DNA of 64,000 nt from Eledone cirrhosa (lineage: Eukaryota), in the NCBI GenBank assembly GCA_964016885.1, contig OZ024745.1:558001-622000 (forward strand), read 5' to 3'. A program made the position numbers and the translations under genes. Positions within the stretch are counted from its first letter, which is position 1. Each line of letters begins with the position of its first letter. This document shows positions 3,734-49,422 of this stretch, piece by piece. Below the pieces are notes generated by a model. The model was given only the letters and a program-made list of their open reading frames with translations, was not told the DNA's origin and ran no database searches.

Positions 3734-3764
<31 letters not shown>

Positions 3765-3834: not shown

Positions 3835-3871
<37 letters not shown>

Positions 3872-3885: not shown

Positions 3886-4680
3886 GGTCGTCGGCGACTA
3901 AACCCCACCAAGTTTACTTGGTGAAGAGGGTGATTTTGGACCCCCTGCAGGACAAAAAACAAAACCTGACAAAGGGCGGAAGAACTCATAAGAGTCAACA
4001 ACCATCCGAAAGTGTATAAATATGTATATACACATGTACCGCGCGGTTAAACTACTGGGAGTGAAGGACCCCTATCCCTTGTCAGGGCGTTCTTCTAGGA
4101 GAAGGCAACTCAGGAAACTGGGATAACTCCGATATAAAACCTGCGGCTCAATAGTTACCGGTGATGTTGATCTTTTCTTCTTTTCGGGTTATAGCTACTG
4201 TCTCTCAGAGAGTGGGATTGGCTCAGTGCACAGTCTTTCCTCACTTTAAAAAATATCTTCACGCACAGGCATTGCACGATAGAATTAATTAATAATTATT
4301 AATAATGGCATATCGTGCAATGGCCATACTCGATAACGAGGGGGCAGCCATCATGTGTGTATGTATGTATGTATGTGTGTGTGTATATATGTATGTATGT
4401 ATATATGTATGTATGTAACCTGTCAAAGGGCAAAGGAGCTCTTAAGAGTCAATGGCCATCCAAAATCACCAGGAGAGATGACCCCTTAGCCTTTGTCAAG
4501 GCAGAATTCTAGGAGAAGGAAAACTCTGATATAACACCTGCAACCCTGATGGTATCCAATGATGTTGACCTGTTCTTCTTTTTGGTAAATATCATCTTGG
4601 TTAAGAGAGTGGGACTGGCTTTGTGCAGTGCCTTTGCTCACTATAAAAGCTTCACGGCACAGGCATTGCTTTATATCTGG
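3885..4680 (+). mobile_element. Two diverged copies of an interspersed repeat (possibly RTE-LINE 5' UTR derived)
   Basis: 4070-4275 resembles 4480-4670 (TTCTAGGAGAAGG.AACTC..ATAT, GATGTTGA, GAGAGTGGGA.TGGCT, GCACAGGCATTGC); family assignment is from memory only. Confidence 0.4.
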
Positions 4681-14702: not shown

Positions 14703-15620
14703 TCATCATCATCATCTTCGTTTAACGTCCACTTTCCACGCTAGCATGGGTTAGACGGGAGTTGTCCCACTTGAGGCAAGGTTGGTCGGGTGACCATCTC
14801 TCGCTCATATAGGACTATCTGGCAGGTTTTCTACGGCTGGATGCCCTTCCTAACACCAACCACATTTACAGTGTGGAACTGGGAACCTTTTACCGTGTTA
14901 CCTACACGGCCACATTACAGCGTGGACTGTGTGTTTTTTTTCTCGTGACACCTACATGATCTCGATCTTGATCTCATTTATCTCATTTATTTGGACTGGA
15001 TGTTGTGGAACAAACTTTATAGAGAGAGGGTGGTGTTGGTGGGAGTGGGAGGATAGGGTAGGGGTAGTGGATTGGGGTGTATATTTGGTTAAGAGGTGCC
15101 TACTGACTGTAGGTCTTCTGTATTACTGCGTAGCGCCAAAGATCTCGGTCCAGTGACATTGTCTTAGAAAGGTGCAAGTGTGTAAGGTCAGAATTTATCA
15201 GATCGTCCCAGGTTTTTCTGGGTCTACCTACTCTGTAACTACCATCAATTTTGATCGCCCTGCACTTTTTTATACAGCTGTCGTCTTTCATCTTTTTATA
15301 CCAACCTAGTCTTCTCTCGAGTAAACAGCATCTGATCCCTCTTATTCCTAATTTCTCACTTAGTTCATTTATGCTTTGCCGTTCACGTATATTACTATTA
15401 CACATCCAACGGAGCATGCATGCTTCGTTCCTTTCCAGTCTACGCAGGTCCTCTGCACGCAATGCCCATGTCTCACTGCCATATAGCATTGCTGTTCATA
15501 TACAGGCATCATACAATCTGCCTTTCATTTTTAGAGAGAAACCTTTTGTGGCCAACAGCGGTATAAGCTCTCTGAACTTTTTCCATCCCATTCTGACTCT
15601 GGCTACTGTACTTTCATAAA
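14703..15620 (-). mobile_element. 5'-truncated RTE-clade LINE: RT C-terminal remnant, 3' UTR and (GAT)n tail
   Basis: Peptide MLYGSETW...RRLERNEACMLRWMC...GRPRKTW...DRDLWR (15100..15489) is typical of RTE ORF ends; tail at 14703-14716. Confidence 0.85.
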
Positions 15621-18876: not shown

Positions 18877-21800
18877 GAGAGACAAAAGTCAGCCCTATAC
18901 CCTACTGAGAGACAAGTCAGCCCTATACCCAACTGAGAGACAAGTCTGCCCTATATCCTACTGAGAGAGAGAAGTCTGCCCTATATCCTACTGAGAGAGA
19001 GAAGACAGTCCTATACCCTACTGAGAGAGAGAAGACAGTCCTATACCCTACTGAGAGACAAGTCAGCCCTATATCCTACTGAGAGAGAGAAGTCAGCCCT
19101 ATATCCTACTGAGAGAGAGAAGACAGTCCTATACCCTACTGAGAGACAAGTCAGCCCTATACCCAACTGAGAGACAAGTCTGCCCTATATCCTACTGAGA
19201 GAGAGAAGTCTGCCCTATATCCTACTGAGAGAGAGAAGACAGTCCTATACCCTACTGAGAGAGAGAAGACAGTCCTATACCCTACTGAGAGACAAGTCAG
19301 CCCTATATCCTACTGAGAGAGAGAAGTCTGCCCTATATCCTACTGAGAGAGAGAAGACAGTCCTATACCCTACTGAGAGAGAGAAGACAGTCCTATACCC
19401 TACTGAGAGACAAGTCAGCCCTATATCCTACTGAGAGAGAGAAGTCTGCCCTATATCCTACTGAGAGAGAGAAGACAGTCCTATACCCTACTGAGAGAGA
19501 GAAGACAGTCCTATACCCTACTGAGAGACAAGTCAGCCCTATATCCTACTGAGAGACAAGTCAGCCCTATACCCTACTGAGAGAGAGAGAAGTCAGCCCT
19601 ATATCCTACTGAGAGAGAGAAATCAGCCCTATACCCTACTGAGAGAGAGAAATCAGCCCTATACCCTACTGAGAGAGAGACAAGTCAGCCCTATATCCTA
19701 CTGAGAGAGAGAAGTCAGCCCTATACCCTACTGAGAGAGAGAAGTCAGCCCTATATCCTACTGAGAGAGAGAAGTCAGCCCTATACCCTACTGAGAGAGA
19801 CAAGTCAGCCCTATACCCTACTGAGAGAGAGAGAAGTCAGCCCTATATCCTACTGAGAGAGAGAAATCAGCCCTATACCCTACTGAGAGAGAGAAATCAG
19901 CCCTATACCCTACTGAGAGAGAGACAAGTCAGCCCTATATCCTACTGAGAGAGAGAAGTCAGCCCTATACCCTACTGAGAGAGAGAAGTCAGCCCTATAC
20001 CCTACTGAGAGAGAGAAATCAGCCCTATACCCTACTGAGAGAGAGAGAAATCAGCCCTATACCCTACTGAGAGAGACAAGTTAGTCTCCCCTCTCCACAC
20101 CACCAATGTTGAAAGGCAATGGCCGATACAGCTTGGCACCAGTGACATCACAACTAATTTCTTCAGCTGAGTAAACTGGAGCAACGTGAACTAAAGTGTC
20201 TTGTTCAAGGACACAATGCTTCACCTGGTCTGAGAATTAAACTCACAACCTCACGACTGTAAGCCCAACCTCTAACCACTCATCCAAATCATCCAAATCT
20301 GATGAGTGGTTAGGGTATAGGACTGTCTTCTCTCTCTCAGTAGGATATAGGGCAGACTTCTCTCTCTCTCAGTAGGGTATAGGGCAGACTTCTCTCTCTC
20401 TCAGTAGGGTATAGGGCTGACTTCTCTCTCTCTCAGTAGGGTATAGGGCTGACTTCTCTCTCTCTCAGTAGGGTATAGGGCTGACTTGTCTCTCTCTCAG
20501 TAGGATATAGGGCTGACTTCTCTCTCTCAGTAGGGTATAGGGCTGATTTCTCTCTCTCAGTAGGGTATAGGGCTGACTTCTCTCTCTCTCAGTAGGGTAT
20601 AGGGCTGACTTCTCTCTCTCAGTAGGGTATAGGGCTGATTTCTCTCTCTCAGTAGGGTATAGGGCTGACTTGTCTCTCTCTCAGTAGGGTATAGGGCTGA
20701 CTTGTCTCTCTCTCAGTAGGGTATAGGGCTGACTTGTCTCTCTCTCAGTAGGATATAGGGCTGACTTCTCTCTCTCAGTAGGGTATAGGGCTGACTTGTC
20801 TCTCTCAGTAGGGTATAGGGCTGACTTCTCTCTCTCTCAGTAGGGTATAGGGCTGACTTCTCTCTCTCAGTAGGGTATAGGGCTGACTTCTCTCTCTCAG
20901 TAGGGTATAGGGCTGACTTCTCTCTCTCTCAGTAGGGTATAGGGCTGACTTGTCTCTCTCTCAGTAGGATATAGGGCTGACTTCTCTCTCTCAGTAGGGT
21001 ATAGGGCTGACTTGTCTCTCTCAGTAGGGTATAGGGCTGACTTCTCTCTCTCTCAGTAGGGTATAGGGCTGACTTCTCTCTCTCAGTAGGGTATAGGGCT
21101 GACTTCTCTCTCTCAGTAGGGTATAGGGCTGACTTCTCTCTCTCTCAGTAGGGTATAGGGCTGACTTGTCTCTCTCTCAGTAGGATATAGGGCTGACTTC
21201 TCTCTCTCAGTAGGGTATAGGGCTGACTTGTCTCTCTCAGTAGGGTATAGGGCTGACTTCTCTCTCTCAGTAGGGTATAGGGCTGACTTCTCTCTCTCTC
21301 AGTAGGGTATAGGGCTGATTTCTCTCTCTCAGTAGGATATAGGGCTGACTTGTCTCTCTCTCAGTAGGGTATAGGGCTGACTTCTCTCTCTCAGTAGGGT
21401 ATAGGGCTGACTTCTCTCTCTCAGTAGGGTATAGGGCTGACTTCTCTCTCTCTCAGTAGGGTATAGGGCTGACTTGTCTCTCTCAGCAGGGTATAGGGCT
21501 GACTTCTCTCTCTCTCAGTAGGGTATAGGGCTGACTTCTCTCTCTCTCAGTAGGGTATAGGGCTGACTTCTCTCTCTCTCAGTAGGGTATAGGGCTGATT
21601 TCTCTCTCTCAGTAGGGTATAGGGCTGACTTGTCTCTCTCTCAGTAGGGTATAGGGCTGATTTCTCTCTCTCAGTAGGATATAGGGCTGACTTCTCTCTC
21701 TCTCAGTAGGGTATAGGGCTGACTTGTCTCTCTCTCAGTAGGATATAGGGCTGACTTCTCTCTCTCTCAGTAGGGTATAGGGCTGACTTGTCTCTCTCAG

Positions 21801-24800
21801 CAGGGTATAGGGCTGATTTCTCTCTCTCAGTAGGATATAGGGCTGACTTGTCTCTCTCTCAGTAGGGTATAGGGCTGATTTCTCTCTCTCAGTAGGATAT
21901 AGGGCTGACTTCTCTCTCTCTCAGTAGGGTATAGGGCTGACTTGTCTCTCTCAGTAGGGTATAGGGCTGACTTCTCTCTCTCTCAGTAGGATATAGGGCT
22001 GACTTCTCTCTCTCTCAGTAGGGTATAGGGCTGACTTCTCTCTCTCTCAGTAGGGTATAGGGCTGACTTGTCTCTCTCAGTAGGGTATAGGGCTGACTTC
22101 TCTCTCTCTCAGTAGGGTATAGGGCTGACTTCTCTCTCTCTCAGTAGGGTATAGGGCTGACTTCTCTCTCTCTCAGTAGGGTATAGGGCTGACTTGTCTC
22201 TCTCAGCAGGGTATAGGGCTGATTTCTCTCTCTCAGTAGGATATAGGGCTGACTTCTCTCTCTCAGTAGGGTATAGGGCTGACTTCTCTCTCTCAGTAGG
22301 GTATAGGGCTGACTTCTCTCTCTCAGTAGGGTATAGGGCTGATTTCTCTCTCTCAGTAGGATATAGGGCTGACTTCTCTCTCTCTCAGTAGGGTATAGGG
22401 CTGACTTCTCTCTCTCTCAGTAGGGTATAGGGCTGACTTCTCTCTCTCTCAGTAGGGTATAGGGCTGACTTCTCTCTCTCTCAGTAGGGTATAGGGCTGA
22501 CTTGTCTCTCTCTCAGTAGGGTATAGGGCTGACTTCTCTCTCTCTCAGTAGGGTATAGGGCTGACTTCTCTCTCTCTCAGTAGGATATAGGGCTGACTTC
22601 TCTCTCTCTCTCAGTAGGGTATAGGGCTGACTTCTCTCTCTCTCAGTAGGATATAGGGCTGACTTCTCTCTCTCAGTAGGGTATAGGCCTGACTTGTCTC
22701 TCTCAGCAGGGTATAGGGCTGACTTCTCTCTCTCAGTAGGATATAGGGCTGATTTCTCTCTCTCAGTAGGGTATAGGACTGACTTGTCTCTCAGTAGGGT
22801 ATAGGACCGACTTGTCTCTCAGTAGGGTATAGGACCGACTTGTCTCTCAGTAGGGTATAGGGCTGACTTGTCTCTCTCAGTAGGATATAGGGCTGACTTC
22901 TCTCTCAGTAGGGTATAGGGCTGACTTCTCTCTCTCAGTAGGGTATAGGCCTGACTTGTCTCTCAGTAGGGTATAGGGCTGACTTGTCTCTCTCAGTAGG
23001 GTATAGGGCTGATTTGTCTCTCTCAGTAGGGTATAGGGCTGATTTGTCTCTCTCAGTAGGGTATAGGGCTGACTTGTCTCTCTCAGTAGGGTATAGGGCT
23101 GACTTGTCTCTCTCAGTAGGGTATAGGGCTGACTTCTCTCTCTCAGTAGGGTATAGGGCTGACTTCTCTCTCTCAGTAGGGTATAGGGCTGACTTCTCTA
23201 CTGAGAGAGAGAGAAGTCAGCCCTATACCCTACTGAGAGAGAGAAGTCAGCCCTATATCCTACTGAGAGAGAGAAGTCAGCCCTATATCCTACTGAGAGA
23301 GACAAGTCAGCCCTATACCCTACTGAGAGACAAGTCGGTCCTATACCCAACTGAGAGAGAGAAATCAGCCCTATATCATACTGAGAGAGAGAAGTCAGCC
23401 CTATACCCTACTGAGAGACAAGTCAGCCCTATACCCTACTGAGAGAGAGACAAGTCAGCCCTATACCCTACTGAGAGAGACAAGTCAGCCCTATATCCTA
23501 CTGAGAGAGAGAAGTCAGCCCTATACCCTACTGAGAGAGAGAGAAGTCAGCCCTATACCCTACTGAGAGAGAGAAGTCAGCCCTATATCCTACTGAGAGA
23601 GAGAAATCAGCCCTATACCCTACTGAGAGAGACAAGTCAGCCCTATACCCTACTGAGAGAGAGAAATCAGCCCTATACCCTACTGAGAGAGACAAGTTAG
23701 TCTCCCCTCTCCACACCACCAATGTTGAAAGGCAATGGCCGATACAGCTTGGCACCAGTGACATCACAACTAATTTCTTCAGCTGAGTAAACTGGAGCAA
23801 CGTGAACTAAAGTGTCTTGTTCAAGGACACAATGCTTCACCTGGTCTGAGAATTAAACTCACAACCTCACGACTGTAAGCCCAACCTCTAACCACTCATC
23901 CAAATCTGTGTGTAGATAAAAATGACAAATTATTTACCTTAGTATATATATAGTTCTTCATAGAATTATTGTTTTCAGTTTGTTTACTTGGCTACAAAAT
24001 GTTTGTACTCTGTATTGTTGAGAAGGGTCATGTCCTAATATTGTCAAATTGAATTCTATTTCCTCTAATTTGGGAGAGACCTGTCAGTGTCAGAATTCCA
24101 ATTTGAGCCAAGCTCCATCTTCTCACATCCACCATCATCTGGACAAACTGTTGACTAACTTCCACTAGCATTTCATTTTCTTCTTCTTCTTCTTCTCTTC
24201 TCCTCTGCCCTTTCCTCTACTAGGTAACTATAAACCTCCACTAATCTCAGTGTCTCTCTGTCAACAGTAAAAGGTCACCAATGGTTGATAGATGGGATGT
24301 ACAGGAAAATACAAAATTGAGTTCACAAGTATGTCACTTATAAAGTTGGCCTACAAACCTATTTGATGACTTCTCTCTCTCAGTAGGATATAGGGCTGAC
24401 TTCTCTCTCTCAGTAGGGTATAGGGCTGATTTCTCTCTCTCAGTAGGGTATAGGGCTGACTTCTCTCTCTCAGTAGGGTATAGGGCTGACTTCTCTCTCT
24501 TAGTAGGATATAGGGCTGACTTCTCTCTCTCAGTAGGGTATAGGGCTGACTTCTCTCTCTTAGTAGGATATAGGGCTGACTTCTCTCTCTCAGTAGGGTA
24601 TAGGGCTGACTTCTCTCTCTCAGTAGGGTATAGGGCTGATTTCTCTCTCTCAGTAGGGTATAGGGCTGACTTGTCTCTCTCAGTAGGGTATAGGGCTGAT
24701 TTCTCTCTCTCAGTAGGATATAGGGCTGACTTCTCTCTCTCAGTAGGGTATAGGGCTGACTTGTCTCTCTCAGTAGGGTATAGGGCTGATTTCTCTCTCT

Positions 24801-25889
24801 CAGTAGGATATAGGGCTGACTTCTCTCTCTCAGTAGGGTATAGGGTTGACTTGTCTCTCTCAGTAGGGTATAGGGCTGATTTCTCTCTCTCAGTAGGATA
24901 TAGGGCTGACTTCTCTCTCTCAGTAGGGTATAGGGCTGACTTCTCTCTCTCAGTAGGGTATAGGGCTGACTTGTCTCTCAGTAGGGTATAGGGCTGACTT
25001 GTCTCTCAGTAGGGTATAGGGCTGACTTGTCTCTCTCAGTAGGGTATAGGGCTGACTTGTCTCTCTCAGTAGGGTATAGGGCTGACTTCTCTCTCTCAGT
25101 AGGGTATAGGGCTGACTTCTCTACTGAGAGAGACAAGTCAGCCCTATATCCTACTGAGAGAGACAAGTCAGCCCTATACCCTACTGAGAGAGACAAGTCA
25201 GCCCTATACCCTACTGAGAGACAAGTCAGCCCTATATCCTACTGAGAGAGAGAAGTCAGCCCTATACCCTACTGAGAGAGAGAAATCAGCCCTATACCCT
25301 ACTGAGAGAGAGAAGTCAGCCCTATACCCTACTGAGAGAGAGAAGTCAGCCCTATACCCTACTGAGAGAGAGAAATCAGCCCTATACCCTACTGAGAGAG
25401 AGAAGTCAGCCCTATATCCTACTGAGAGAGAGAAATCAGCCCTATACCCTACTGAGAGAGAGAAGTCAGCCCTATATCCTACTGAGAGAGACAAGTCAGC
25501 CCTATATCCTACTGAGAGAGAGAAATCAGCCCTATACCCTACTGAGAGAGAGAAGTCAGCCCTATACCCTACTGAGAGAGAGAAATCAGCCCTATACCCT
25601 ACTGAGAGAGAGAAGTCAGCCCTATATCCTACTGAGAGAGAGAAGTCAGCCCTATACCCTACTGAGAGAGACAAGTCAGCCCTATATCCTACTGAGAGAG
25701 AGAAGTCAGCCCTATACCCTACTGAGAGAGAGAAATCAGCCCTATACCCTACTGAGAGAGAGACAAGTCAGCCCTATACCCTACTGAGAGAGAGAAATCA
25801 GCCCTATACCCTACTGAGAGAGAGAAGTCAGCCCTATACCCTACTGAGAGAGAGAAGTCAGCCCTATATCCTACTGAGAGAGAGAAGTC
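18877..25889. repeat. 28-32 bp satellite (CTACTGAGAGAGAGAAGTCAGCCCTATACC)n in five blocks of alternating orientation
   Basis: Forward 18877-20085, reverse 20311-23197, forward 23198-23700, reverse 24367-25120, forward 25121-25889. Confidence 0.96.
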
Positions 25890-26558
25890 ATCAAATAGGT
25901 TTGTAGGCCAACTTTATAAGTGACATACTTGTGAACTCAATTTTGTATTTTCCTGTACATCCCATCTATCAACCATTGGTGACCTTTTACTGTTGACAGA
26001 GAGACACTGAGATTAGTGGAGGTTTATAGTTACCTAGTAGAGGAAAGGGCAGAGGAGAAGAGAAGAAGAAGAAGAAGAAAATGAAATGCTAGTGGAAGTT
26101 AGTCAACAGTTTGTCCAGATGATGGTGGATGTGAGAAGATGGAGCTTGGCTCAAATTGGAATTCTGACACTGACAGGTCTCTCCCAAATTAGAGGAAATA
26201 GAATTCAATTTGACAATATTAGGACATGACCCTTCTCAACAATACAGAGTACAAACATTTTGTAGCCAAGTAAACAAACTGAAAACAATAATTCTATGAA
26301 GAACTATATATATACTAAGGTAAATAATTTGTCATTTTTATCTACACACAGATTTGGATGAGTGGTTAGAGGTTGGGCTTACAGTCGTGAGGTTGTGAGT
26401 TTAATTCTCAGACCAGGTGAAGCATTGTGTCCTTGAACAAGACACTTTAGTTCACGTTGCTCCAGTTTACTCAGCTGAAGAAATTAGTTGTGATGTCACT
26501 GGTGCCAAGCTGTATCGGCCATTGCCTTTCAACATTGGTGGTGTGGAGAGGGGAGACT
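23700..26558. repeat. Large inverted repeat (palindrome) centred near 25120
   Basis: 23700-24368 (SINE piece plus unique DNA) is the reverse complement of 25887-26558, with inverted satellite blocks between. Confidence 0.93.
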
Positions 26559-30054: not shown

Positions 30055-30174
30055 ACGAGTGTTTGACTCTAATGCACTCAAGTGTTTTTATCTTATATAT
30101 ATATATATAAATACACACACACATATATATATATATATAATATAAGATCAAAAGATGGTTAAAGGAGTTCAATA

Positions 30175-30245
30175 TATTTTATTATGCGCATTTCAAAAAC
30201 AAACATCATTAAACAATAATATTTGTGTTTTCATCAGATAAAATA
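30175..30245 (-). ncRNA. Type I hammerhead ribozyme (copy 1)
   Basis: Reverse complement of 36524-36594. Confidence 0.88.
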
Positions 30246-31472
30246 GGAGAACATGATATGAAGGCTAAAAAAACACTTGTTGATAGTGCAGTTTTAAATC
30301 AACATATGAAAAGTGGTTTTAGATTGATGTGTGATATTGGGAAAAATATTTTATTTAGAGAGGGGGGGAGAGAAAAGGATGAAAAGGGAAGGAGATGAGA
30401 GGGAGAGATGGGTGATAGAGAGAAAGAGATAGTTTTTATAACAGAGAGGAGATATATATTATATAGAGGGGTTGAAAACCGTTGGAAGATACTGTATAAA
30501 TTAAAAATTTTGAAAATTAACGAAGGGAGGATATGTGCGAGGAAAAAATATATTATATTTAGGGAGGGGTGGGGGTGGAAAGGATGAAAAAAAGGGGAGG
30601 AGATGAGAGTGAAGGTGGAAAGGGAGAGATGGGTGATAGAGAGAAAGAGATAGTTTTTATAACTGAGAAAAAGATATAATGTTTTAATATAGAGAGGTTG
30701 GGAACCGTTGGAAGATAATGTATAAATTAAAGGAATTTGAAAATTAACGAAGGGAAATTATGTATGGAGATAGAGAGAAAAAATAACGAAGGGAGATTAT
30801 GTATGGAGATAGAGAGAAAAAAATAATAATTGTGGGTGAATATTCAAAAGGAGAAATGTAGGAATCTTAAAATTAGCAAAGAGAAAATGTTTATGTATAG
30901 GATTTGAGAAAAATTTATATTGAATTCATATGTATTAATAATGAGTTTGTTGATGGGGAGAAAAAAAAAAAAAAAAAATAATAATAATAATAAATTAAGG
31001 ATGAAATTGAGATTAAAAAGATTTATGATAGAGAGAAAAAATAATAATGATTGCGGATGAATACTCAAAATGTCAAAAACAAATGTTATTGTTTTACGAA
31101 GAGATATAATGAGGGTGATGAGTAAACGGGTATTATAGAGTGTATAATGCCCTTTAAAGTAAGGTAGATGGGTATATTTTAAAGAATATATGAGTATATA
31201 TTAAAAAAATATATATAATAATAAATTAAGGATGAAATTGAGATTAAAAAGATTTATGATAGAGGGAAAAAAATAATAATGATTGCGGATGAATATTCAA
31301 AATGTCAAAAACAAATGTTATTGTTTTACGAGAAGATAGGATGAGGTAAATGAATAAACGAGTACTATAGAGTGTATAATGCCCTTTAAAGTAAGGTAGA
31401 TGGGTATATTTTAAAGAGGTGTATGTATATGTGCCTTTGAGAAAAGATTCTAAATTGATAAAGAATTGAATA

Positions 31473-33875
31473 TTAACTGTATACTTTGTGAAAAGTTCTA
31501 TGGAATTTATGAAGGCAGATGGAAAACAAATCCGAGCGTCTATTTATTATGGATTCTAGGTTAGAGATAATGGTAAATTTTTCATTTAGGCAGAGATTAC
31601 AGATTTTAGATAGAGAACTGTTCAAGTACGAGGATGCAGAAGAAATCTTTTTCCAAAAGATGTTATATTTAATGTTTTTGTCTTTTAAGGACCATATGAG
31701 TTCTGAGAGAGCAGTGTTAGTTCTTTTAAGTTTGTATTTGAAAGATGAATGATGATTATAGAGACGAGCTTTAAAAGAGGTGGAAGTGGAGCCAAAATAG
31801 GTGAAGGAGTTGGTGCTAGTTATAATTTTACATTCATAAATTAAGTTTTTATCGAGGCAATGGTTGTTGAGAGGACATTTATTTTTAATGCGGCAGTTGC
31901 AATTAGAGAGATTATTAATGAGTGATCTAGTGTTATCTATAGAAGGAATTGGATTGGAGAAGTTGTTTGCGATAGGAATAATAGGAATAATAGTTTCTTG
32001 ATTTAGAGTTGGATTATGAACATTTAGCGAAGTTGTGTTTGACGTTGTATTTGGGTTTACAGAAGTTAGCCTAGGGTTTACAATGACGTCAGGAGTACTA
32101 TTATTGTTATTATGAGATTCAATATTGGAAGGAAGAGATTTAGTATTTAATATTTTGTTGTTGTGTTTAGAAATGATGTTGGAAATATTGGAGGATGTAG
32201 AATACGAAAATTTAATGGTGTGTTTGTTAAATATTTTACTATAGATATGTGAGGGAGGGAAGCATTTATTTAAGGCACTAAAAAATAATTTAGGAATATT
32301 GTTATTAATAGAGATGGAGAAAGGAGCATTATACCAGATTATGTTTTTGTATCTAGGTCTTTTATTAAAATTATTGGAATGGTTATGATTAAATATTCTA
32401 CTGTAAGTTTTCCTAGAATTTGTTTCTTTATTATATTTGATTTTATCTGGATAGCCAGCTTTAGAAAGTGCGTTATTATAGTAATTGGCGTTAGCATCAA
32501 AGATGTTTTTATTAGAAGATATGTTAGATATTCTATTTCCAATATTATTAACTATAGCATTCTTGATATTGGTAGGATGGTTAGATTTAAAGTTAACATA
32601 ATTAAGATTCTCATTGTTTTTATGGTAAGGGTAATATAGGCCAGTGTCAAGATTAAGAGATACATCCAAGAAATTAGCTAGTTTGGTACTATTATCAAAT
32701 TCAATTTTTAGGTTATGTTGGTTAAAGAGATTACGTATATTGTTCTTAATAATATTAAGTTTAACTATATTGCAATTTAGGATAGTAAAGAGTCCATCGT
32801 CACGATAAATTCCACCGCGAAGTTGAGGAATTTTCCGACTCAAAGAGTTCAAAATGAAGATACCAATTAAATCAGTCAATTGGGATGAATCGGATGCTCC
32901 CATTGTGATGTCGAAGTTGTTAGAGGTATCGGCTCTGGTCCAATATTCGTTGTTGAACTCTAGGATGGTTTTACGTGCGGTGAGGATGATGTGAAGTTCA
33001 TCTGTGGTGATGTCAGAATATTTAAGTGCGAAAGATAGAGCATTATTGAGAAGTGAAGGCGAAATGGAGGAATAGTAGCTGGCAATATCGAATTGAATAA
33101 ATTTTAGTTTGTTTTTATTATCCAATTTGTTGAACCAGCCAATCACTTCAGAAGTACCAAACCATAAATTTAGGTTTAAAGAAGAGCAATTAGAACTAAC
33201 CTGTGGGATAATCCTATCCAAGATGGCTTTACTAACAACCCCCAGATCAGATTTAGAGGGGGCGATTAATCTAACAGGTAGTTCAGTGCGAAAATTGTTT
33301 TTGTGATCCTTGAGATTTATCCTCGGAGTTCTTGGGAGGAATGGTTCGGTCTTTTTTTCAATGCCAAGTTTTGACATAATCTCATAGGCTTCAAGGTTTA
33401 TGCATTCTAAATTTTCATGGTTGGTTTTACGATACTTTTTCCTAAGTTCCTTTAGGATAAGGTTGTTATAATTATCCTTGGAAATACCATATAGGTTATT
33501 GGTTTTGTCAGAGTGGACTAAAACATTTTTTGAGGAATTTAGGTTAGAGATTGTGTTCTTGAGATTTACAAGGTGCTCTTGTCCTTTGTAAGGGTATCTC
33601 TTGAATTTAAGATTTTTTATAATTTTAGTTAATTCTTCCTCGAATTGTGCTAGATTTTTGTTGGAAGGAGGATTTCGTCTGGAATTAAAAAGATGATCGA
33701 GGAAGTTGTGTTCTTTGGTATGAAAGTTCCCTTTTAGGCGCTGGTCATAGAAATAGGCTGTCCATCTAAGTCTTCTTACGAAGGAGTCAGTTTTTTCAAT
33801 AAGAAGTTTGGTGAATTCAGATTTACCAGGTATAGGAATGACTTTAGTAGAATTGGTTATGTTGTAATAATCCAT
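31473..33875 (-). CDS. Penelope-like RT-GIY-YIG polyprotein, intact (~800 aa from ATG 33875; ORF track extends to a TTG at 33935)
   Basis: FIQFDIASYYSSI, MGASDSS, IYRDDGL, FLDVSL; CNCR..CPL..C; LIYEC..YFGST..FKAR..HH; CNLCLNEK; differs from the + copy by one residue (V vs D). Confidence 0.92.
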   Translation of the reverse strand: MDYYNITNSTKVIPIPGKSEFTKLLIEKTDSFVRRLRWTAYFYDQRLKGNFHTKEHNFLDHLFNSRRNPPSNKNLAQFEEELTKIIKNLKFKRYPYKGQEHLVNLKNTISNLNSSKNVLVHSDKTNNLYGISKDNYNNLILKELRKKYRKTNHENLECINLEAYEIMSKLGIEKKTEPFLPRTPRINLKDHKNNFRTELPVRLIAPSKSDLGVVSKAILDRIIPQVSSNCSSLNLNLWFGTSEVIGWFNKLDNKNKLKFIQFDIASYYSSISPSLLNNALSFALKYSDITTDELHIILTARKTILEFNNEYWTRADTSNNFDITMGASDSSQLTDLIGIFILNSLSRKIPQLRGGIYRDDGLFTILNCNIVKLNIIKNNIRNLFNQHNLKIEFDNSTKLANFLDVSLNLDTGLYYPYHKNNENLNYVNFKSNHPTNIKNAIVNNIGNRISNISSNKNIFDANANYYNNALSKAGYPDKIKYNKETNSRKTYSRIFNHNHSNNFNKRPRYKNIIWYNAPFSISINNNIPKLFFSALNKCFPPSHIYSKIFNKHTIKFSYSTSSNISNIISKHNNKILNTKSLPSNIESHNNNNSTPDVIVNPRLTSVNPNTTSNTTSLNVHNPTLNQETIIPIIPIANNFSNPIPSIDNTRSLINNLSNCNCRIKNKCPLNNHCLDKNLIYECKIITSTNSFTYFGSTSTSFKARLYNHHSSFKYKLKRTNTALSELIWSLKDKNIKYNIFWKKISSASSYLNSSLSKICNLCLNEKFTIISNLESIINRRSDLFSICLHKFHRTFHKVYS

Positions 33876-33952
33876 GTTGTAGAAGAAGAGGTGAAGGACC
33901 ATCAAAAGGTATCCAATATGAGAGTAAGCGCTCAACCGTTAAGGAGCAAGTA

Positions 33953-35304
33953 AACTTCGCGGTGGAATTTATCGTGACGATGGACTCTTTACTATCCTAA
34001 ATTGCAATATAGTTAAACTTAATATTATTAAGAACAATATACGTAATCTCTTTAACCAACATAACCTAAAAATTGAATTTGATAATAGTACCAAACTAGC
34101 TAATTTCTTGGATGTATCTCTTAATCTTGACACTGGCCTATATTACCCTTACCATAAAAACAATGAGAATCTTAATTATGTTAACTTTAAATCTAACCAT
34201 CCTACCAATATCAAGAATGCTATAGTTAATAATATTGGAAATAGAATATCTAACATATCTTCTAATAAAAACATCTTTGATGCTAACGCCAATTACTATA
34301 ATAACGCACTTTCTAAAGCTGGCTATCCAGATAAAATCAAATATAATAAAGAAACAAATTCTAGGAAAACTTACAGTAGAATATTTAATCATAACCATTC
34401 CAATAATTTTAATAAAAGACCTAGATACAAAAACATAATCTGGTATAATGCTCCTTTCTCCATCTCTATTAATAACAATATTCCTAAATTATTTTTTAGT
34501 GCCTTAAATAAATGCTTCCCTCCCTCACATATCTATAGTAAAATATTTAACAAACACACCATTAAATTTTCGTATTCTACATCCTCCAATATTTCCAACA
34601 TCATTTCTAAACACAACAACAAAATATTAAATACTAAATCTCTTCCTTCCAATATTGAATCTCATAATAACAATAATAGTACTCCTGACGTCATTGTAAA
34701 CCCTAGGCTAACTTCTGTAAACCCAAATACAACGTCAAACACAACTTCGCTAAATGTTCATAATCCAACTCTAAATCAAGAAACTATTATTCCTATTATT
34801 CCTATCGCAAACAACTTCTCCAATCCAATTCCTTCTATAGATAACACTAGATCACTCATTAATAATCTCTCTAATTGCAACTGCCGCATTAAAAATAAAT
34901 GTCCTCTCAACAACCATTGCCTCGATAAAAACTTAATTTATGAATGTAAAATTATAACTAGCACCAACTCCTTCACCTATTTTGGCTCCACTTCCACCTC
35001 TTTTAAAGCTCGTCTCTATAATCATCATTCATCTTTCAAATACAAACTTAAAAGAACTAACACTGCTCTCTCAGAACTCATATGGTCCTTAAAAGACAAA
35101 AACATTAAATATAACATCTTTTGGAAAAAGATTTCTTCTGCATCCTCGTACTTGAACAGTTCTCTATCTAAAATCTGTAATCTCTGCCTAAATGAAAAAT
35201 TTACCATTATCTCTAACCTAGAATCCATAATAAATAGACGCTCGGATTTGTTTTCCATCTGCCTTCATAAATTCCATAGAACTTTTCACAAAGTATACAG
35301 TTAA
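33953..35304 (+). pseudogene. 5'-truncated copy of the same ORF, starting just before the YRDD motif
   Basis: Matches 37850-39201; begins at the inversion junction. Confidence 0.9.
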
Positions 35305-36523
35305 TATTCAATTCTTTATCAATTTAGAATCTTTTCTCAAAGGCACATATACATACACCTCTTTAAAATATACCCATCTACCTTACTTTAAAGGGCATTA
35401 TACACTCTATAGTACTCGTTTATTCATTTACCTCATCCTATCTTCTCGTAAAACAATAACATTTGTTTTTGACATTTTGAATATTCATCCGCAATCATTA
35501 TTATTTTTTTCCCTCTATCATAAATCTTTTTAATCTCAATTTCATCCTTAATTTATTATTATATATATTTTTTTAATATATACTCATATATTCTTTAAAA
35601 TATACCCATCTACCTTACTTTAAAGGGCATTATACACTCTATAATACCCGTTTACTCATCACCCTCATTATATCTCTTCGTAAAACAATAACATTTGTTT
35701 TTGACATTTTGAGTATTCATCCGCAATCATTATTATTTTTTCTCTCTATCATAAATCTTTTTAATCTCAATTTCATCCTTAATTTATTATTATTATTATT
35801 TTTTTTTTCTCCCCATCAACAAACTCATTATTAATACATATGAATTCAATATAAATTTTTCTCAAATCCTATACATAAACATTTTCTCTTTGCTAATTTT
35901 AAGATTCCTACATTTCTCCTTTTGAATATTCACCCACAATTATTATTTTTTTCTCTCTATCTCCATACATAATCTCCCTTCGTTATTTTTTCTCTCTATC
36001 TCCATACATAATTTCCCTTCGTTAATTTTCAAATTCCTTTAATTTATACATTATCTTCCAACGGTTCCCAACCTCTCTATATTAAAACATTATATCTTTT
36101 TCTCAGTTATAAAAACTATCTCTTTCTCTCTATCACCCATCTCTCCCTTTCCACCTTCACTCTCATCTCCTCCCCTTTTTTTCATCCTTTCCACCCCCAC
36201 CCCTCCCTAAATATAATATATTTTTTCCTCGCACATATCCTCCCTTCGTTAATTTTCAAAATTTTTAATTTATACAGTATCTTCCAACGGTTTTCAACCC
36301 CTCTATATAATATATATCTCCTCTCTGTTATAAAAACTATCTCTTTCTCTCTATCACCCATCTCTCCCTCTCATCTCCTTCCCTTTTCATCCTTTTCTCT
36401 CCCCCCCTCTCTAAATAAAATATTTTTCCCAATATCACACATCAATCTAAAACCACTTTTCATATGTTGATTTAAAACTGCACTATCAACAAGTGTTTTT
36501 TTAGCCTTCATATCATGTTCTCC

Positions 36524-36594
36524 TATTTTATCTGATGAAAACACAAATATTATTGTTTAATGATGTTTGTTTTTGAAATGCGCATAATAAAATA
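36524..36594 (+). ncRNA. Type I hammerhead ribozyme (copy 2)
   Basis: Stem I TATTTTAT/ATAAAATA; CTGATGA 36532-36538; long stem II AAACACAAATATTATT-GTTT-AATGATGTTTGTTTTT; GAAA 36575-36578; palindromic stem III TGCGCA; AUA cleavage triplet ending at 36586. Confidence 0.9.
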
Positions 36595-36798
36595 TATTGA
36601 ACTCCTTTAACCATCTTTTGATCTTATATTATGCATACTCCAGTCCCACAAACTGTAGAGTGCTTCTTATCCGATATCTGCATTGCTTTATTGTACTACA
36701 ATAAAACTCACCTCCTACATTTACTTGCTCCTTAACGGTTGAGCGCTTACTCTCATATTGGATACCTTTTGATGGTCCTTCACCTCTTCTTCTACAAC

Positions 36799-39201
36799 AT
36801 GGATTATTACAACATAACCAATTCTACTAAAGACATTCCTATACCTGGTAAATCTGAATTCACCAAACTTCTTATTGAAAAAACTGACTCCTTCGTAAGA
36901 AGACTTAGATGGACAGCCTATTTCTATGACCAGCGCCTAAAAGGGAACTTTCATACCAAAGAACACAACTTCCTCGATCATCTTTTTAATTCCAGACGAA
37001 ATCCTCCTTCCAACAAAAATCTAGCACAATTCGAGGAAGAATTAACTAAAATTATAAAAAATCTTAAATTCAAGAGATACCCTTACAAAGGACAAGAGCA
37101 CCTTGTAAATCTCAAGAACACAATCTCTAACCTAAATTCCTCAAAAAATGTTTTAGTCCACTCTGACAAAACCAATAACCTATATGGTATTTCCAAGGAT
37201 AATTATAACAACCTTATCCTAAAGGAACTTAGGAAAAAGTATCGTAAAACCAACCATGAAAATTTAGAATGCATAAACCTTGAAGCCTATGAGATTATGT
37301 CAAAACTTGGCATTGAAAAAAAGACCGAACCATTCCTCCCAAGAACTCCGAGGATAAATCTCAAGGATCACAAAAACAATTTTCGCACTGAACTACCTGT
37401 TAGATTAATCGCCCCCTCTAAATCTGATCTGGGGGTTGTTAGTAAAGCCATCTTGGATAGGATTATCCCACAGGTTAGTTCTAATTGCTCTTCTTTAAAC
37501 CTAAATTTATGGTTTGGTACTTCTGAAGTGATTGGCTGGTTCAACAAATTGGATAATAAAAACAAACTAAAATTTATTCAATTCGATATTGCCAGCTACT
37601 ATTCCTCCATTTCGCCTTCACTTCTCAATAATGCTCTATCTTTCGCACTTAAATATTCTGACATCACCACAGATGAACTTCACATCATCCTCACCGCACG
37701 TAAAACCATCCTAGAGTTCAACAACGAATATTGGACCAGAGCCGATACCTCTAACAACTTCGACATCACAATGGGAGCATCCGATTCATCCCAATTGACT
37801 GATTTAATTGGTATCTTCATTTTGAACTCTTTGAGTCGGAAAATTCCTCAACTTCGCGGTGGAATTTATCGTGACGATGGACTCTTTACTATCCTAAATT
37901 GCAATATAGTTAAACTTAATATTATTAAGAACAATATACGTAATCTCTTTAACCAACATAACCTAAAAATTGAATTTGATAATAGTACCAAACTAGCTAA
38001 TTTCTTGGATGTATCTCTTAATCTTGACACTGGCCTATATTACCCTTACCATAAAAACAATGAGAATCTTAATTATGTTAACTTTAAATCTAACCATCCT
38101 ACCAATATCAAGAATGCTATAGTTAATAATATTGGAAATAGAATATCTAACATATCTTCTAATAAAAACATCTTTGATGCTAACGCCAATTACTATAATA
38201 ACGCACTTTCTAAAGCTGGCTATCCAGATAAAATCAAATATAATAAAGAAACAAATTCTAGGAAAACTTACAGTAGAATATTTAATCATAACCATTCCAA
38301 TAATTTTAATAAAAGACCTAGATACAAAAACATAATCTGGTATAATGCTCCTTTCTCCATCTCTATTAATAACAATATTCCTAAATTATTTTTTAGTGCC
38401 TTAAATAAATGCTTCCCTCCCTCACATATCTATAGTAAAATATTTAACAAACACACCATTAAATTTTCGTATTCTACATCCTCCAATATTTCCAACATCA
38501 TTTCTAAACACAACAACAAAATATTAAATACTAAATCTCTTCCTTCCAATATTGAATCTCATAATAACAATAATAGTACTCCTGACGTCATTGTAAACCC
38601 TAGGCTAACTTCTGTAAACCCAAATACAACGTCAAACACAACTTCGCTAAATGTTCATAATCCAACTCTAAATCAAGAAACTATTATTCCTATTATTCCT
38701 ATCGCAAACAACTTCTCCAATCCAATTCCTTCTATAGATAACACTAGATCACTCATTAATAATCTCTCTAATTGCAACTGCCGCATTAAAAATAAATGTC
38801 CTCTCAACAACCATTGCCTCGATAAAAACTTAATTTATGAATGTAAAATTATAACTAGCACCAACTCCTTCACCTATTTTGGCTCCACTTCCACCTCTTT
38901 TAAAGCTCGTCTCTATAATCATCATTCATCTTTCAAATACAAACTTAAAAGAACTAACACTGCTCTCTCAGAACTCATATGGTCCTTAAAAGACAAAAAC
39001 ATTAAATATAACATCTTTTGGAAAAAGATTTCTTCTGCATCCTCGTACTTGAACAGTTCTCTATCTAAAATCTGTAATCTCTGCCTAAATGAAAAATTTA
39101 CCATTATCTCTAACCTAGAATCCATAATAAATAGACGCTCGGATTTGTTTTCCATCTGCCTTCATAAATTCCATAGAACTTTTCACAAAGTATACAGTTA
39201 A
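36799..39201 (+). CDS. Penelope-like RT-GIY-YIG polyprotein, intact (800 aa from ATG 36799)
   Basis: Same motifs as the minus copy; N-terminal STKDIPIP..LIEK..F.RRLRW.AYF resembles Naiad-type PLE N-termini as I recall them. Confidence 0.93.
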   Translation: MDYYNITNSTKDIPIPGKSEFTKLLIEKTDSFVRRLRWTAYFYDQRLKGNFHTKEHNFLDHLFNSRRNPPSNKNLAQFEEELTKIIKNLKFKRYPYKGQEHLVNLKNTISNLNSSKNVLVHSDKTNNLYGISKDNYNNLILKELRKKYRKTNHENLECINLEAYEIMSKLGIEKKTEPFLPRTPRINLKDHKNNFRTELPVRLIAPSKSDLGVVSKAILDRIIPQVSSNCSSLNLNLWFGTSEVIGWFNKLDNKNKLKFIQFDIASYYSSISPSLLNNALSFALKYSDITTDELHIILTARKTILEFNNEYWTRADTSNNFDITMGASDSSQLTDLIGIFILNSLSRKIPQLRGGIYRDDGLFTILNCNIVKLNIIKNNIRNLFNQHNLKIEFDNSTKLANFLDVSLNLDTGLYYPYHKNNENLNYVNFKSNHPTNIKNAIVNNIGNRISNISSNKNIFDANANYYNNALSKAGYPDKIKYNKETNSRKTYSRIFNHNHSNNFNKRPRYKNIIWYNAPFSISINNNIPKLFFSALNKCFPPSHIYSKIFNKHTIKFSYSTSSNISNIISKHNNKILNTKSLPSNIESHNNNNSTPDVIVNPRLTSVNPNTTSNTTSLNVHNPTLNQETIIPIIPIANNFSNPIPSIDNTRSLINNLSNCNCRIKNKCPLNNHCLDKNLIYECKIITSTNSFTYFGSTSTSFKARLYNHHSSFKYKLKRTNTALSELIWSLKDKNIKYNIFWKKISSASSYLNSSLSKICNLCLNEKFTIISNLESIINRRSDLFSICLHKFHRTFHKVYS

Positions 39202-39256
39202 TATTCAATTCTTTATCAATTTAGAATCTTTTCTCAAAGGCACATATACATACACC

Positions 39257-40320
39257 TCTTTAAAATATACCCATCTACCTTACTTTAAAGGGCATTATAC
39301 ACTCTATAGTACTCGTTTATTCATTTACCTCATCCTATCTTCTCGTAAAACAATAACATTTGTTTTTGACATTTTGAATATTCATCCGCAATCATTATTA
39401 TTTTTTTCCCTCTATCATAAATCTTTTTAATCTCAATTTCATCCTTAATTTATTATTATATATATTTTTTTAATATATACTCATATATTCTTTAAAATAT
39501 ACCCATCTACCTTACTTTAAAGGGCATTATACACTCTATAATACCCGTTTACTCATCACCCTCATTATATCTCTTCGTAAAACAATAACATTTGTTTTTG
39601 ACATTTTGAGTATTCATCCGCAATCATTATTATTTTTTCTCTCTATCATAAATCTTTTTAATCTCAATTTCATCCTTAATTTATTATTATTATTATTTTT
39701 TTTTTTTTCTCCCCATCAACAAACTCATTATTAATACATATGAATTCAATATAAATTTTTCTCAAATCCTATACATAAACATTTTCTCTTTGCTAATTTT
39801 AAGATTCCTACATTTCTCCTTTTGAATATTCACCCACAATTATTATTTTTTTCTCTCTATCTCCATACATAATCTCCCTTCGTTATTTTTTCTCTCTATC
39901 TCCATACATAATTTCCCTTCGTTAATTTTCAAATTCCTTTAATTTATACATTATCTTCCAACGGTTCCCAACCTCTCTATATTAAAACATTATATCTTTT
40001 TCTCAGTTATAAAAACTATCTCTTTCTCTCTATCACCCATCTCTCCCTTTCCACCTTCACTCTCATCTCCTCCCCTTTTTTTCATCCTTTCCACCCCCAC
40101 CCCTCCCTAAATATAATATATTTTTTCCTCGCACATATCCTCCCTTCGTTAATTTTCAAAATTTTTAATTTATACAGTATCTTCCAACGGTTTTCAACCC
40201 CTCTATATAATATATATCTCCTCTCTGTTATAAAAACTATCTCTTTCTCTCTATCACCCATCTCTCCCTCTCATCTCCTTCCCTTTTCATCCTTTTCTCT
40301 CCCCCCCTCTCTAAATAAAA
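39257..40320 (+). repeat. Internal duplications in the PLE 3' non-coding region: a ~200-bp pair (39257, 39489), a ~37-bp pair (~39845-39920) and a ~200-bp pair (~39914, 40141)
   Basis: Direct comparison; the same pattern is present in all three element copies. Confidence 0.85.
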
Positions 40321-40423
40321 TATTTTTCCCAATATCACACATCAATCTAAAACCACTTTTCATATGTTGATTTAAAACTGCACTATCAACAAGTGTTTTT
40401 TTAGCCTTCATATCATGTTCTCC

Positions 40424-40494
40424 TATTTTATCTGATGAAAACACAAATATTATTGTTTAATGATGTTTGTTTTTGAAATGCGCATAATAAAATA
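40424..40494 (+). ncRNA. Type I hammerhead ribozyme (copy 3)
   Basis: Identical to 36524-36594, offset 3900 bp. Confidence 0.9.
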
Positions 40495-40618
40495 TATTGA
40501 ACTCCTTTAACCATCTTTTGATCTTATATTATGCATACTCCAGTCCCACAAACTGTAGAGTGCTTCTTATCCGATATCTGCATTGCTTTATTGTACTACA
40601 ATAAAACTCACCTCCTAC

Positions 40619-40649
<31 letters not shown>

Positions 40650-46477: not shown

Positions 46478-49422
46478 GTATACTGACCACTACAAGATAC
46501 CAGTGGGTATAAGTTAACCAGGATTAATCCCACAGGTTTTCACATATACTGACCACTACAATATACCAGTCGGTATAAGTTAACCAGGATTAATTCCCAC
46601 AGGTTTTCACATATACTGACCACTACAACATACCAGTGGGTATAAGTTAACCAGGATTAATTCCCACAGGTTTTCACATATACTGACCACTACAGGATAC
46701 CAGTCGGTATAAGTTAACCAGGATTAATTCCCACAGGTTTTCACATATACTGACCACTACAATATACCAGTCGGTATAAGTTAACCAGGATTAATTCCCA
46801 CAGGTTTTCACATATACTGACCACTACAGGATACCAGTCGGTATAAGTTAACCAGGATTAATTCCCACAGGTTTTCACATATACTGACCACTACAAGATA
46901 CCAGTCGGTATAAGTTAACCAGGATTAATTCCCACAGGTTTTCACATATACTGACCACTACAGGATACCAGTCGGTATAAGTTAACCAGGATTAATTCCC
47001 ACAGGTTTTCACATATACTGACCACTACAAGATACCAGTGGGTATAAGTTAACCAGGTTTAATTCCCACAGGTTTTCACATATACTGACCACTACAAGAT
47101 ACCAGTCGGTATAAGTTAACCAGGTTTAATTCCCACAGGTTTTCATATATACTGACCACTACAAGATACCAGTCGGTATAAGTTAACCAGGATTAATCCC
47201 ACAGGTTTTCACATATACTGACCACTACAAGATACCAGTTGGTATAAGTTAACCAGGATTAATCCCACAGGTTTTCACATATATTGACCACTACAAGATA
47301 CCAGTCGGTATAAGTTAACCAGGATTAATTCCCACAGGTTTTCACATATACTGACCACTACAAGATACCAGTTGGTATTAGTTAACCAGGTTTAATTCCC
47401 ACAGGTTTTCACATATACTGACCACTACAAGATACCAGTCGGTATAAGTTAACCAGGTTTAATTCCCACAGGTTTTCAGATATACTGACCACTACAAGAT
47501 ACCAGTCGGTATAAGTTAACCAGGATTAATTCCCACAGGTTTTCACATATACTGACCACTACAAGATACCAGTCGGTATAAGTTAACCAGGATTAATTCC
47601 CACAGGTTTTCACATATACTGACCACTACAAGATACCAGTGGGTATAAGTTAACCAGGATTAATTCCCACAGGTTTCACATATACTGACCACTACAAGAT
47701 ACCAGTCGGTATAAGTTAACCAGGTTTAATTCCCACAGGTTTTCACATATACTGACCACTACAAGATACCAGTGGGAATAAGTTAACCAGGATTAATCCC
47801 ACAGGTTTTCACATATACTGACCACTACAATATACCAGTCGGTATAAGTTAACCAGGATTAATTCCCACAGGTTTTCACATATACTGACCACTACAACAT
47901 ACCAGTGGGTATAAGTTAACCAGGATTAATTCCCACAGGTTTTCACATATACTGACCACTACAAGATACCAGTGGGTATAAGTTAACCAGGATTAATTCC
48001 CACAGGTTTTCACATATACTGACCACTACAAGATACCAGTCGGTATAAGTTAACCAGGATTAATTCCCACAGGTTTTCACATATACTGACCACTACAGGA
48101 TACCAGTCGGTATAAGTTAACCAGGATTAATTCCCACAGGTTTTCACATACACTGACCACTACAAGATACCAGTCGGTATAAGTTAACCAGGTTTAATTC
48201 CCACAGGTTTACAGGTTTTCATATATACTGACCACTACAAGATACCAGTCGGTATAAGTTAACCAGGATTAATCCCACAGGTTTTCACATATACTGACCA
48301 CTACAAGATACCAGTTGGTATAAGTTAACCAGGATTAATCCCACAGGTTTTCACATATACTGACCACTACAAGATACGAGTTGGTATAAGTTAACCAGGA
48401 TTAATTCCCACAGGTTTTCACATATACTGACCACTACAAGATACGAGTTGGTATAAGTTAACCAGGATTAATTCCCACAGGTTTTCACATATACTGACCA
48501 CTACAAGATACCAGTTGGTATAAGTTAACCAGGATTAATCCCACAGGTTTTCACATATACTGACCACTACAAGATACCAGTGGGTATAAGTTAACCAGGT
48601 TTAATTCCCACAGGTTTTCACATATACTGACCACTACAATATACCAGTTGGTATAAGTTAACCAGGATTAATTCCCACAGGTTTTCACATATACTGACCA
48701 CTACAATATACCAGTCGGTATAAGTTAACCAGGATTAATCCCACAGGTTTTCACATATACTGACCACTACAATATACCAGTTGGTATAAGTTAACCAGGA
48801 TTAATCCCACAAGTTTTCACATATACTGACCACTACAAGATACCAGTGGGTATAAGTTAACCAGGATTAATCCCACAGGTTTTCACATATACTGACCACT
48901 ACAAGATACCAGTGGGTATAAGTTAACCAGGATTAATCCCACAGGTTTTCACATATACTGACCACTACAAGATACCAGTGGGTATAAGTTAACCAGGATT
49001 AATCCCACAGGTTTTCACATATACTGACCACTACAAGATACCAGTGGGTATAAGTTAACCAGGATTAATTCCCACAGGTTTTCACATATACTGACCACTA
49101 CAATATACCAGTTGGTATAAGTTAACCAGGATTAATCCCACAGGTTTTCACATATACTGACCACTACAATATACCAGTTGGTATAAGTTAACCAGGATTA
49201 ATCCCACAGGTTTTCACATATACTGACCACTACAATATACCAGTTGGTATAAGTTAACCAGGATTAATCCCACAGGTTTTCACATATACTGACCACTACA
49301 AGATACCAGTCGGTATAAGTTAACCAGGATTAATCCCACAGGTTTTCACATATACTGACCACTACAAGATACCAGTCGGTATAAGTTAACCAGGATTAAT
49401 CCCACAGGTTTTCACATATACT
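46478..49422. repeat. 66/67-bp satellite (ATATACTGACCACTACAAGATACCAGTCGGTATAAGTTAACCAGGATTAATTCCCACAGGTTTTCAC), ~44 units
   Basis: Direct reading. Confidence 0.97.

Follow-up and report, generated by a model that had tools for sequence, protein, structure and literature searches.

A very recent Hydra-clade Penelope-like insertion of 2.69 units in Eledone cirrhosa, with an inverted arm and a partial tandem

The window analysed here is a stretch of 64,000 nucleotides of Eledone cirrhosa (assembly GCA_964016885.1, contig OZ024745.1, positions 558,001 to 622,000), and its main feature is a Penelope-like element (PLE). A single insertion, made very recently, has placed a Hydra-clade Penelope-like retrotransposon in a (TA)n tract. 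The insertion totals 10,483 bp, or 2.69 units of 3,900 bp, and consists of an inverted copy (arm A), a 5'-truncated copy (arm B) and a full copy (copy C). The coordinates bear out the layout drawn in an earlier note on this DNA, an inverted arm, then a partial copy (2.77 kb) and a complete unit of 3,900 bp. Unit position 1 corresponds to window 36720 and unit position 3900 to window 40619. The features are listed below, with RT for reverse transcriptase, ORF for open reading frame, LTR for long terminal repeat and UTR for untranslated region.

30123..30136, left (TA)n target remnant, identified from the sequence
30137..33954, minus strand, arm A, inverted copy, unit 1-3813, with no upstream pseudo-LTR
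30175..30245, minus strand, type I hammerhead ribozyme motif of arm A
31473..33902, minus strand, intact 809-residue RT-GIY-YIG ORF of arm A with the private change D21V
33953..33954, head-to-head junction, a 2-nt microhomology (AA) common to arms A and B
33953..36719, plus strand, arm B, 5'-truncated, unit 1131-3900, forming the 2.77-kb pseudo-LTR of copy C
35360..35805, plus strand, 232-bp near-duplication in the 3' UTR, also at 39257-39702 and 30972-31417
36462, plus strand, inferred capped transcription start (unit 3643) upstream of copy C
36524..36594, plus strand, type I hammerhead motif upstream of copy C, predicted cut after 36586
36633..36719, plus strand, 87-nt 'tail' between the inferred RT start sites at unit 3813 and 3900
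36720..40619, plus strand, copy C, full 3,900-bp unit ending at the 3900 site
36772..39201, plus strand, intact 809-residue ORF of copy C
38527..38772, plus strand, Asn-rich insert between RT and endonuclease, predicted to be disordered
40424..40494, plus strand, type I hammerhead motif of copy C
40620..40645, right (TA)n target remnant

The two ORFs point away from each other and both begin with ATG. As the earlier note claimed for its two frames of about 800 residues, the 809-residue products differ by a single V/D exchange, at residue 21 (V in arm A, D in copy C). At the nucleotide level, a single substitution at unit 114 and a T-run with 5 extra nt in A set arm A apart from copy C; the only difference between arm B and copy C is a T-run 3 nt shorter in B. 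The arm A substitution is private, being absent from all other arms aligned, and 28 of 28 reads of another run carry the other base. Residue 21 is N or D in all 35 aligned homologues, so that the Val of arm A is off pattern.

The outer end of arm A lies at the second RT start site of the family (3813), and its inner end falls exactly at the boundary between unit positions 3900 and 1 (the 3900/1 boundary). In a strict pattern search it was the genome's sole exact position-1 start preceded by a non-A base. Both ends of the insertion lie within (TA)n while the left and right flanks are different sequences, and the locus is thus not a mirrored fold-back. No record bridging the inversion junction was found among contigs and restriction-site-associated DNA (RAD) reads of four public runs over window 32900-35300, a result that is uninformative because the individuals are possibly different.

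All three copies share one haplotype, which is matched exactly at one other genomic place only; this supports the proposal of the earlier note that a single event delivered them. The matching place is a 5'-truncated copy and not a parent locus, which was not found in the assembly. This copy, at C1:30.79 Mb, is identical to the window locus over unit 1257-3813, run lengths excepted, and is a daughter or sister of it. On sequence grounds it appears to be the best sign that the window lineage is still moving.

The two intact ORFs do not have the same expression potential. Copy C has the inferred start (36462) and a hammerhead motif upstream, both within arm B, and is therefore likely a complete unit. 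Because its sequence starts at unit 1, arm A has neither the inferred start site nor an upstream hammerhead; together with the off-pattern Val, this suggests that arm A is likely not self-expressing and that copy C alone looks self-expressing. Of the 'two potentially active copies' of the earlier note, the intact frames stand, whereas the activity of arm A is put in doubt by its missing upstream elements and its private D-to-V change. The long inverted arms could form double-stranded RNA.

Protein, hammerhead motif and clade

The ORF encodes a telomerase-like RT (residues ~65 to 495), an N-rich insert (~586 to 667) and a GIY-YIG endonuclease (~668 to 798). The top five Foldseek matches of the predicted protein model (pLDDT 83.9) are telomerases (E 9e-8 to 1e-6). 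In structure comparison, Candida telomerase (Z 16.1, root-mean-square deviation (rmsd) 4.9, 303 residues aligned) is tied by the RT of a diversity-generating retroelement (Z 16.2, rmsd 4.0, 275 aligned), and residues 685 to 790 of the predicted model match the GIY-YIG catalytic domain of I-TevI (Z 9.5, rmsd 2.4, 89 aligned). A Pfam search of the protein itself returned neither an RT nor a GIY-YIG match; PF01541 was matched by 3 of 36 alignment members (E up to 0.05). Sequence analysis reveals that Y689, Y702, G704, R713, H717, E774 and N787 are invariant in 35 homologues, as are the CxCX5C linker (C668, C670, C676), the CxxC pair (C768, C771) and the CxH motif (C796, H798). DKT (D132-K133-T134) takes the place of DKG, and the RWK site reads R46-W47-T48, two of its three residues, with K in 27 of 35 homologues. 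The CCHH motif is absent: a single Cys (C691) lies between GIY and YIG, in a position occupied by Ala in 31 of 35 homologues. The linker between RT and endonuclease is lengthened by the N-rich insert, of 84 residues against a median of 14 in the homologues.

The predicted hammerhead (unit 3705-3775) comprises an 8-bp stem I, CUGAUGA, stem II, GAAA and a palindromic stem III. Across 82 arms its core is changed in 3 of 1,066 cells, compared with 144 of 8,036 nearby, and its stems show no two-sided covariation. An Rfam search gave no hammerhead, only microRNA matches driven by (TA)n. Two variants nearly private to the locus, at window 36525 and 36559 (unit 3706 and 3740), both convert a hammerhead G-U wobble into a Watson-Crick pair.

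These motifs bear directly on the clade. Hydra elements are described as having a C-terminal endonuclease, DKT, CxCX5C, CxxC and CxH but no CCHH, a hammerhead and a (TA)n target, whereas Naiads are described with the endonuclease at the N terminus, with DKA and CCHH, and as lacking a canonical hammerhead (PMC8557442). The window element thus fits the Hydra clade, most motifs matching. Naiad membership was rejected: the protein has no N-terminal GIY-YIG, reads DKT rather than DKA and is devoid of CCHH, and a hammerhead motif is present. The 'Naiad-like' label of the earlier note falls accordingly, a C-terminal endonuclease with a canonical hammerhead motif being the reverse of what is described for Naiads (PMC8557442). 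With the Naiads the element does share a unit size in the range of 3.4-4.4 kb, a (TA)n target, partial tandems with an inverted 5' copy and high copy number (PMC8557442).

Within the Hydra clade, which includes the octopus family Hydra-1_Obim, the likeness extends to the single ORF with RT followed by C-terminal GIY-YIG, the same motifs, the hammerhead and the (TA)n target; the differences are a unit of 3.9 kb rather than under ~3 kb, an ORF of 809 residues with an N-rich insert, and RWT instead of RWK (PMC8557442). The length under 3 kb is described as typical, not defining; the 3,900-bp unit owes its excess to the N-rich insert and to a 3' UTR that is long and in part duplicated. Hydra-1_Obim is a different family: it is listed at 2,507 bp with 'no pLTR', 4 copies ending at one site and another hammerhead sequence, and ~19 of 45 N-terminal residues are identical when compared by eye (PMC8557442). 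Against those four copies, the window family counts thousands, with at least 34 ORFs intact. By length and hammerhead sequence, the window family is not among the 27 listed Hydra families (PMC8557442), and the best of 70 protein matches (top 8,000 candidates scored) are 31-40% identical. Set apart both by protein identity and by these listed descriptions, the family looks uncatalogued.

Family members, paired ends and stop sites

The copy count and divergence proposed as a check by the earlier note point to a large and young family. The 3.0-Gb assembly contains at least 6,762 exact 3900-type ends, abutting TATATA, and 3,342 exact 3813-type ends; unit 1-27 is carried exactly at 49 places. The 40 best-scored genomic matches to a 1-kb RT stretch are all 99.9-100% identical, and 34 of 40 arms covering the ORF encode the 809 residues, i.e. 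there are at least 34 intact ORFs. The earlier description is supported in its account of a Penelope-like element that is very young and probably active, has a pseudo-LTR of 2.8 kb and carries a nearly full unit in inverted orientation.

The architecture of the locus is real but less exceptional than that note implied. Two intact inverted ORFs also occur at two other young loci (C10:47.66 Mb and C13:33.29 Mb), an older locus (C1:111.38 Mb) carries two full inverted units, five young loci carry two full tandem units, and two loci are longer than the window locus. Moreover, a partial tandem within inverted repeats of variable size is described as the most frequent form of the D. virilis Penelope (PMC2377424).

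Other members were observed in passing. A full copy at G000:C8:35.85 Mb (L084) has lost unit 3605-3766 between two 10-nt repeats, with the junction at the predicted hammerhead cut. The inverted arm at G000:C18:11.72 Mb (L090) contains ~180 bp of foreign sequence near unit 2907-2923. A perfect palindrome of the element with mirrored flanks (G000:C1:362767900-362777800, L063) is a probable assembly fold-back. In public runs X1, X4, X5 and X19, searched at window 32900-35300, three organism labels carry the family at 85-100% identity, and the family is therefore shared across related hosts.

A survey of long copies covered 35 regions: 28 two-armed insertions with both ends resolved, 5 single-armed copies and 2 running into gaps. 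In 27 of the 28, one end lies at 3898-3900 and the other at 3810-3819; the 28th has mirrored flanks. Furthermore, the two arms of an insertion share private variants at the window locus and at C10, C1765, C2:340.9, C12:22.0 and C2:202.4. Among 22 short pairs, the mean difference is 0.68 within loci and 3.63 between them, and a private variant is shared in 5.

Stop sites were read from the first 90 3813-type arms on contig C1, with the partner determined for 74; the C1:362.77 Mb palindrome (mirrored flanks) and two mini-arrays were left out of the arm statistics. Thirteen arms end short of 3648, 39 end at 3641-3648 and 38 continue beyond, so that 39 of 77 first passes end at the inferred cap site. 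Partners agree: 21 of the 74 pairs are long-long, 23 are cap-cap and none is mixed (p 5e-13), the other 30 involving an arm that stops downstream of 3648. After the unit boundary has been crossed, 0 of 31 passes stop at 3641-3648 (p 6e-8). Such a stop would be unavoidable on a linear capped RNA of one unit, and the template of the long arms thus behaves as if endless.

The cap itself is suggested by the bases added at 3643. Genome-wide, a base other than C precedes the 3643 start of 3,271 arms, and a hand count of the first 100 rows gave G 51, T 39 and A 10 before that position (p 2e-8 versus 25%). An extra G from a copied cap is a known signature in L1 work, and the excess of G may likewise be copied cap, with some Gs perhaps from the partner arm.

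A second stop lies around the 3900/1 boundary, where 8 of 44 arrivals end within unit 3893-6 (14 nt) against ~0.9% expected (p 4e-9; 9e-8 without the window locus). A hot spot at exactly unit 1 was rejected, because the strict pattern matches the window locus only and the enrichment spans 3893-6.

The two mini-arrays (G000:C2:216011660-216012480, L071, 204-bp period, unit 3771-75; G000:C13:36269500-36270860, L089, 185-bp period, unit 3802-88) each repeat one junction in both inverted arms and end at the usual two sites. The 204-bp mini-unit starts 3 nt from the predicted hammerhead cut. No parent locus of either was found among the 49 exact unit 1-27 matches.

Proposed mechanism and alternatives

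These observations are best read as twin priming on one rolling, likely circular, RNA, a reading to which a probability of roughly 55% is given on sequence evidence. Both cut (TA)n DNA ends would prime reverse transcription on the same RNA at the fixed sites 3813 and 3900, 87 nt apart, and the two cDNAs would then be joined head to head. The template of the long arms would be endless, most simply a unit-length RNA released by two hammerheads and circularised, or read end to end; cleavage and circularisation are putative steps. At the window locus, the 3900-primed strand would have rolled 1.7 times to give arms B and C, and the 3813-primed strand would have run once round and stalled at position 1, where the other primer sits, to give arm A. 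Capped linear RNA starting at 3643 would yield only the common 170 + 258 bp dead-end pairs.

Several points weigh against this reading. No pile-up of 5' ends was seen at the predicted hammerhead cut (40 matches versus 28 at a control, with patterns of different length), and for another PLE, hammerhead cleavage is reported as dispensable in vitro, with no RNA-seq reads ending at the cut (PMC11167929). The 185-bp mini-unit contains no hammerhead and thus was not circularised by one. At C13:33.3, the variant 3253T is present in both passes of one arm and not in the other arm, and the tandem units at C3:26.5 differ by 7 shared variants, for which later unequal crossover is a putative explanation. 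End pairing has exceptions, namely one sampled pair with two 3813-type ends (L220) and one older neighbour with two 3900 ends. Boundary stops were found in 7 of 26 3813-type arms and 1 of 17 3900-type arms, an asymmetry that is not significant (p 0.12), and the list of arms behind the stop-site counts was compiled by hand. Finally, gene conversion between close repeats could also homogenise arms, and short non-autonomous elements may be the source of the short cap-stop pairs.

The best surviving alternative, itself unlikely, retains the twin priming and replaces the circle with a linear, terminally redundant RNA, on which short cDNA, having reached the capped 5' end, would jump to the pseudo-LTR copy downstream, and would do so repeatedly. 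Strong-stop transfer in LTR elements offers a likeness for such a jump. Seamless tandems, shared haplotypes and boundary stalls would all follow without ribozyme cleavage, as would the missing pile-up at 3768, and the C8:35.9 deletion between 10-nt repeats suggests that the RT can jump by microhomology. However, the transfer would need to be near-perfect, given 0 of 31 second-pass stops at 3643; a copied cap G should have left a substitution at 3642, and no aligned long arm carries one. Nor does this route easily yield the 185- and 204-bp arrays.

Less probable again are linear read-through transcripts of multi-unit arrays, whether one RNA or two from the same source locus. Two full tandem units do exist at five young loci, the unit differences at C3:26.5 and C13:33.3 would fit templates with unlike units, and a multi-copy mRNA has been proposed (PMC11167929). 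Each unit of such an RNA contains a 3643 start, however, and many such RNAs should force the 3643 stops that are seen in 0 of 31 passes. Arms of 2.46-2.56 units would also need sources of at least 3 units, and in the 35 regions none was seen. Moreover, the assembly contains no parent of the mini-arrays, and copying of this kind would shorten an array in each cycle.

It is very improbable that the inverted arm formed after insertion or by self-priming cDNA snap-back, or that the locus is an assembly artefact. In favour of such origins are the palindromic junctions frequent among short pairs, a published proposal of self-priming (PMC3846280) and the resemblance of one assembly locus (C1:362.77 Mb) to a fold-back. 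Against them, arm A ends at the other fixed site (3813) rather than mirroring the end of copy C, the two flanks are unlike, the junction is asymmetric in joining unit 1 to unit 1131, unit 1-1130 is present in arm A but missing from its neighbour, arm B, and the same end rule applies at 27 of 28 long loci.

Comparison with known systems and significance

The surroundings of the insertion are satellite-rich, 558 kb from the contig start. Tandem arrays at 6245-10458, 46479-49422, 50101-64000 and 1-2284 have basic periods of 12, 67, 52 and 35 bp, respectively, and a 30-bp satellite occupies 18877-26558 in blocks of alternating orientation, including a 2.9-kb self-inverted stretch (23699-26558). 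Judged by eye, a broken frame at 12761-13846 (plus strand) resembles a hAT-type transposase and another at 15100-15495 (minus strand) the end of an RTE-type LINE. Elsewhere in the genome, five hemocyanin gene copies with about seven unit matches each lie at G000:C1:173.74-173.91 Mb and C26:21.93-22.02 Mb, two of them inverted on C26. These hemocyanin genes are of molluscan type, and one functional unit gives better scores with squid and octopus chains than with a gastropod chain, which points to a cephalopod host; seven units in each gene would agree with an octopod.

LINE-1 twin priming resembles the twin priming proposed here: both target strands prime on one RNA, and the inverted 5' segment is joined by microhomology. 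In LINE-1, the second primer anneals at variable internal sites and the arms rarely overlap, whereas in the window family both sites are fixed and the arms overlap or exceed one unit. Among PLEs, the Penelopes of D. virilis and A. vaga share the partial tandem flanked by inverted repeats of variable size, a start site inside the pseudo-LTR and a tail at one end (PMC2377424, PMC3846280), and those of A. vaga also have N-rich inserts in the ORF (PMC3846280). They belong to a different clade, and their tail is 30-40 nt rather than 87 nt (PMC2377424, PMC3846280). The Poseidon element PAc of Anolis, studied in vitro, likewise uses an AT-rich target, cuts and extends both strands with little primer-template homology and has two internal RT start sites defining a tail; its sites lie inside the ORF, no strand difference is reported in vitro, and tandem and inverted products were not reconstituted (PMC11167929). 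In the window family, the start sites lie upstream of the ORF, nearly always with one of each per insertion.

Circular templates have been proposed for PLEs and retrozymes, with hammerhead-released monomers ligated into circles that give cDNA of more than one unit (PMC4209133; bioRxiv 10.64898/2026.07.22.740005). For autonomous PLEs, the idea was put forward without in vivo evidence (PMC4209133), to which the window family adds stop-site statistics and paired priming; the 2026 retrozyme preprint deals with non-autonomous arrays (bioRxiv 10.64898/2026.07.22.740005). A literature search at listing level, largely without subscription journals, found no proposal of paired priming at two fixed sites on one template. 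The origin of tandem and inverted PLE insertions and the regeneration of the pseudo-LTR are stated as unsolved (PMC8557442, PMC2377424). Tentatively, and at slightly less than even odds, the family could amount to genomic proof of this missing Penelope cycle, in which circular RNA, paired fixed-site priming, a rolling pseudo-LTR, a partner-primer collision that fixes the inversion and capped-RNA dead ends would be combined.

The layout, the clade and a cephalopod member are already known; taken by itself, the locus is a large instance of that layout. Octopus vulgaris, too, is described as having Penelope-like families with recent activity, for which no clade names are given (PMC13282606). The family adds a high-copy, recently active Hydra member, where the single listed cephalopod Hydra family had no pseudo-LTR and four copies (PMC8557442). 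It constitutes a large natural data set, in which 34 or more intact ORFs are combined with start sites at two fixed positions, an inferred cap site and a precisely located stall, and it gives sharp predictions for RNA-circle and in vitro tests of the open mechanism.

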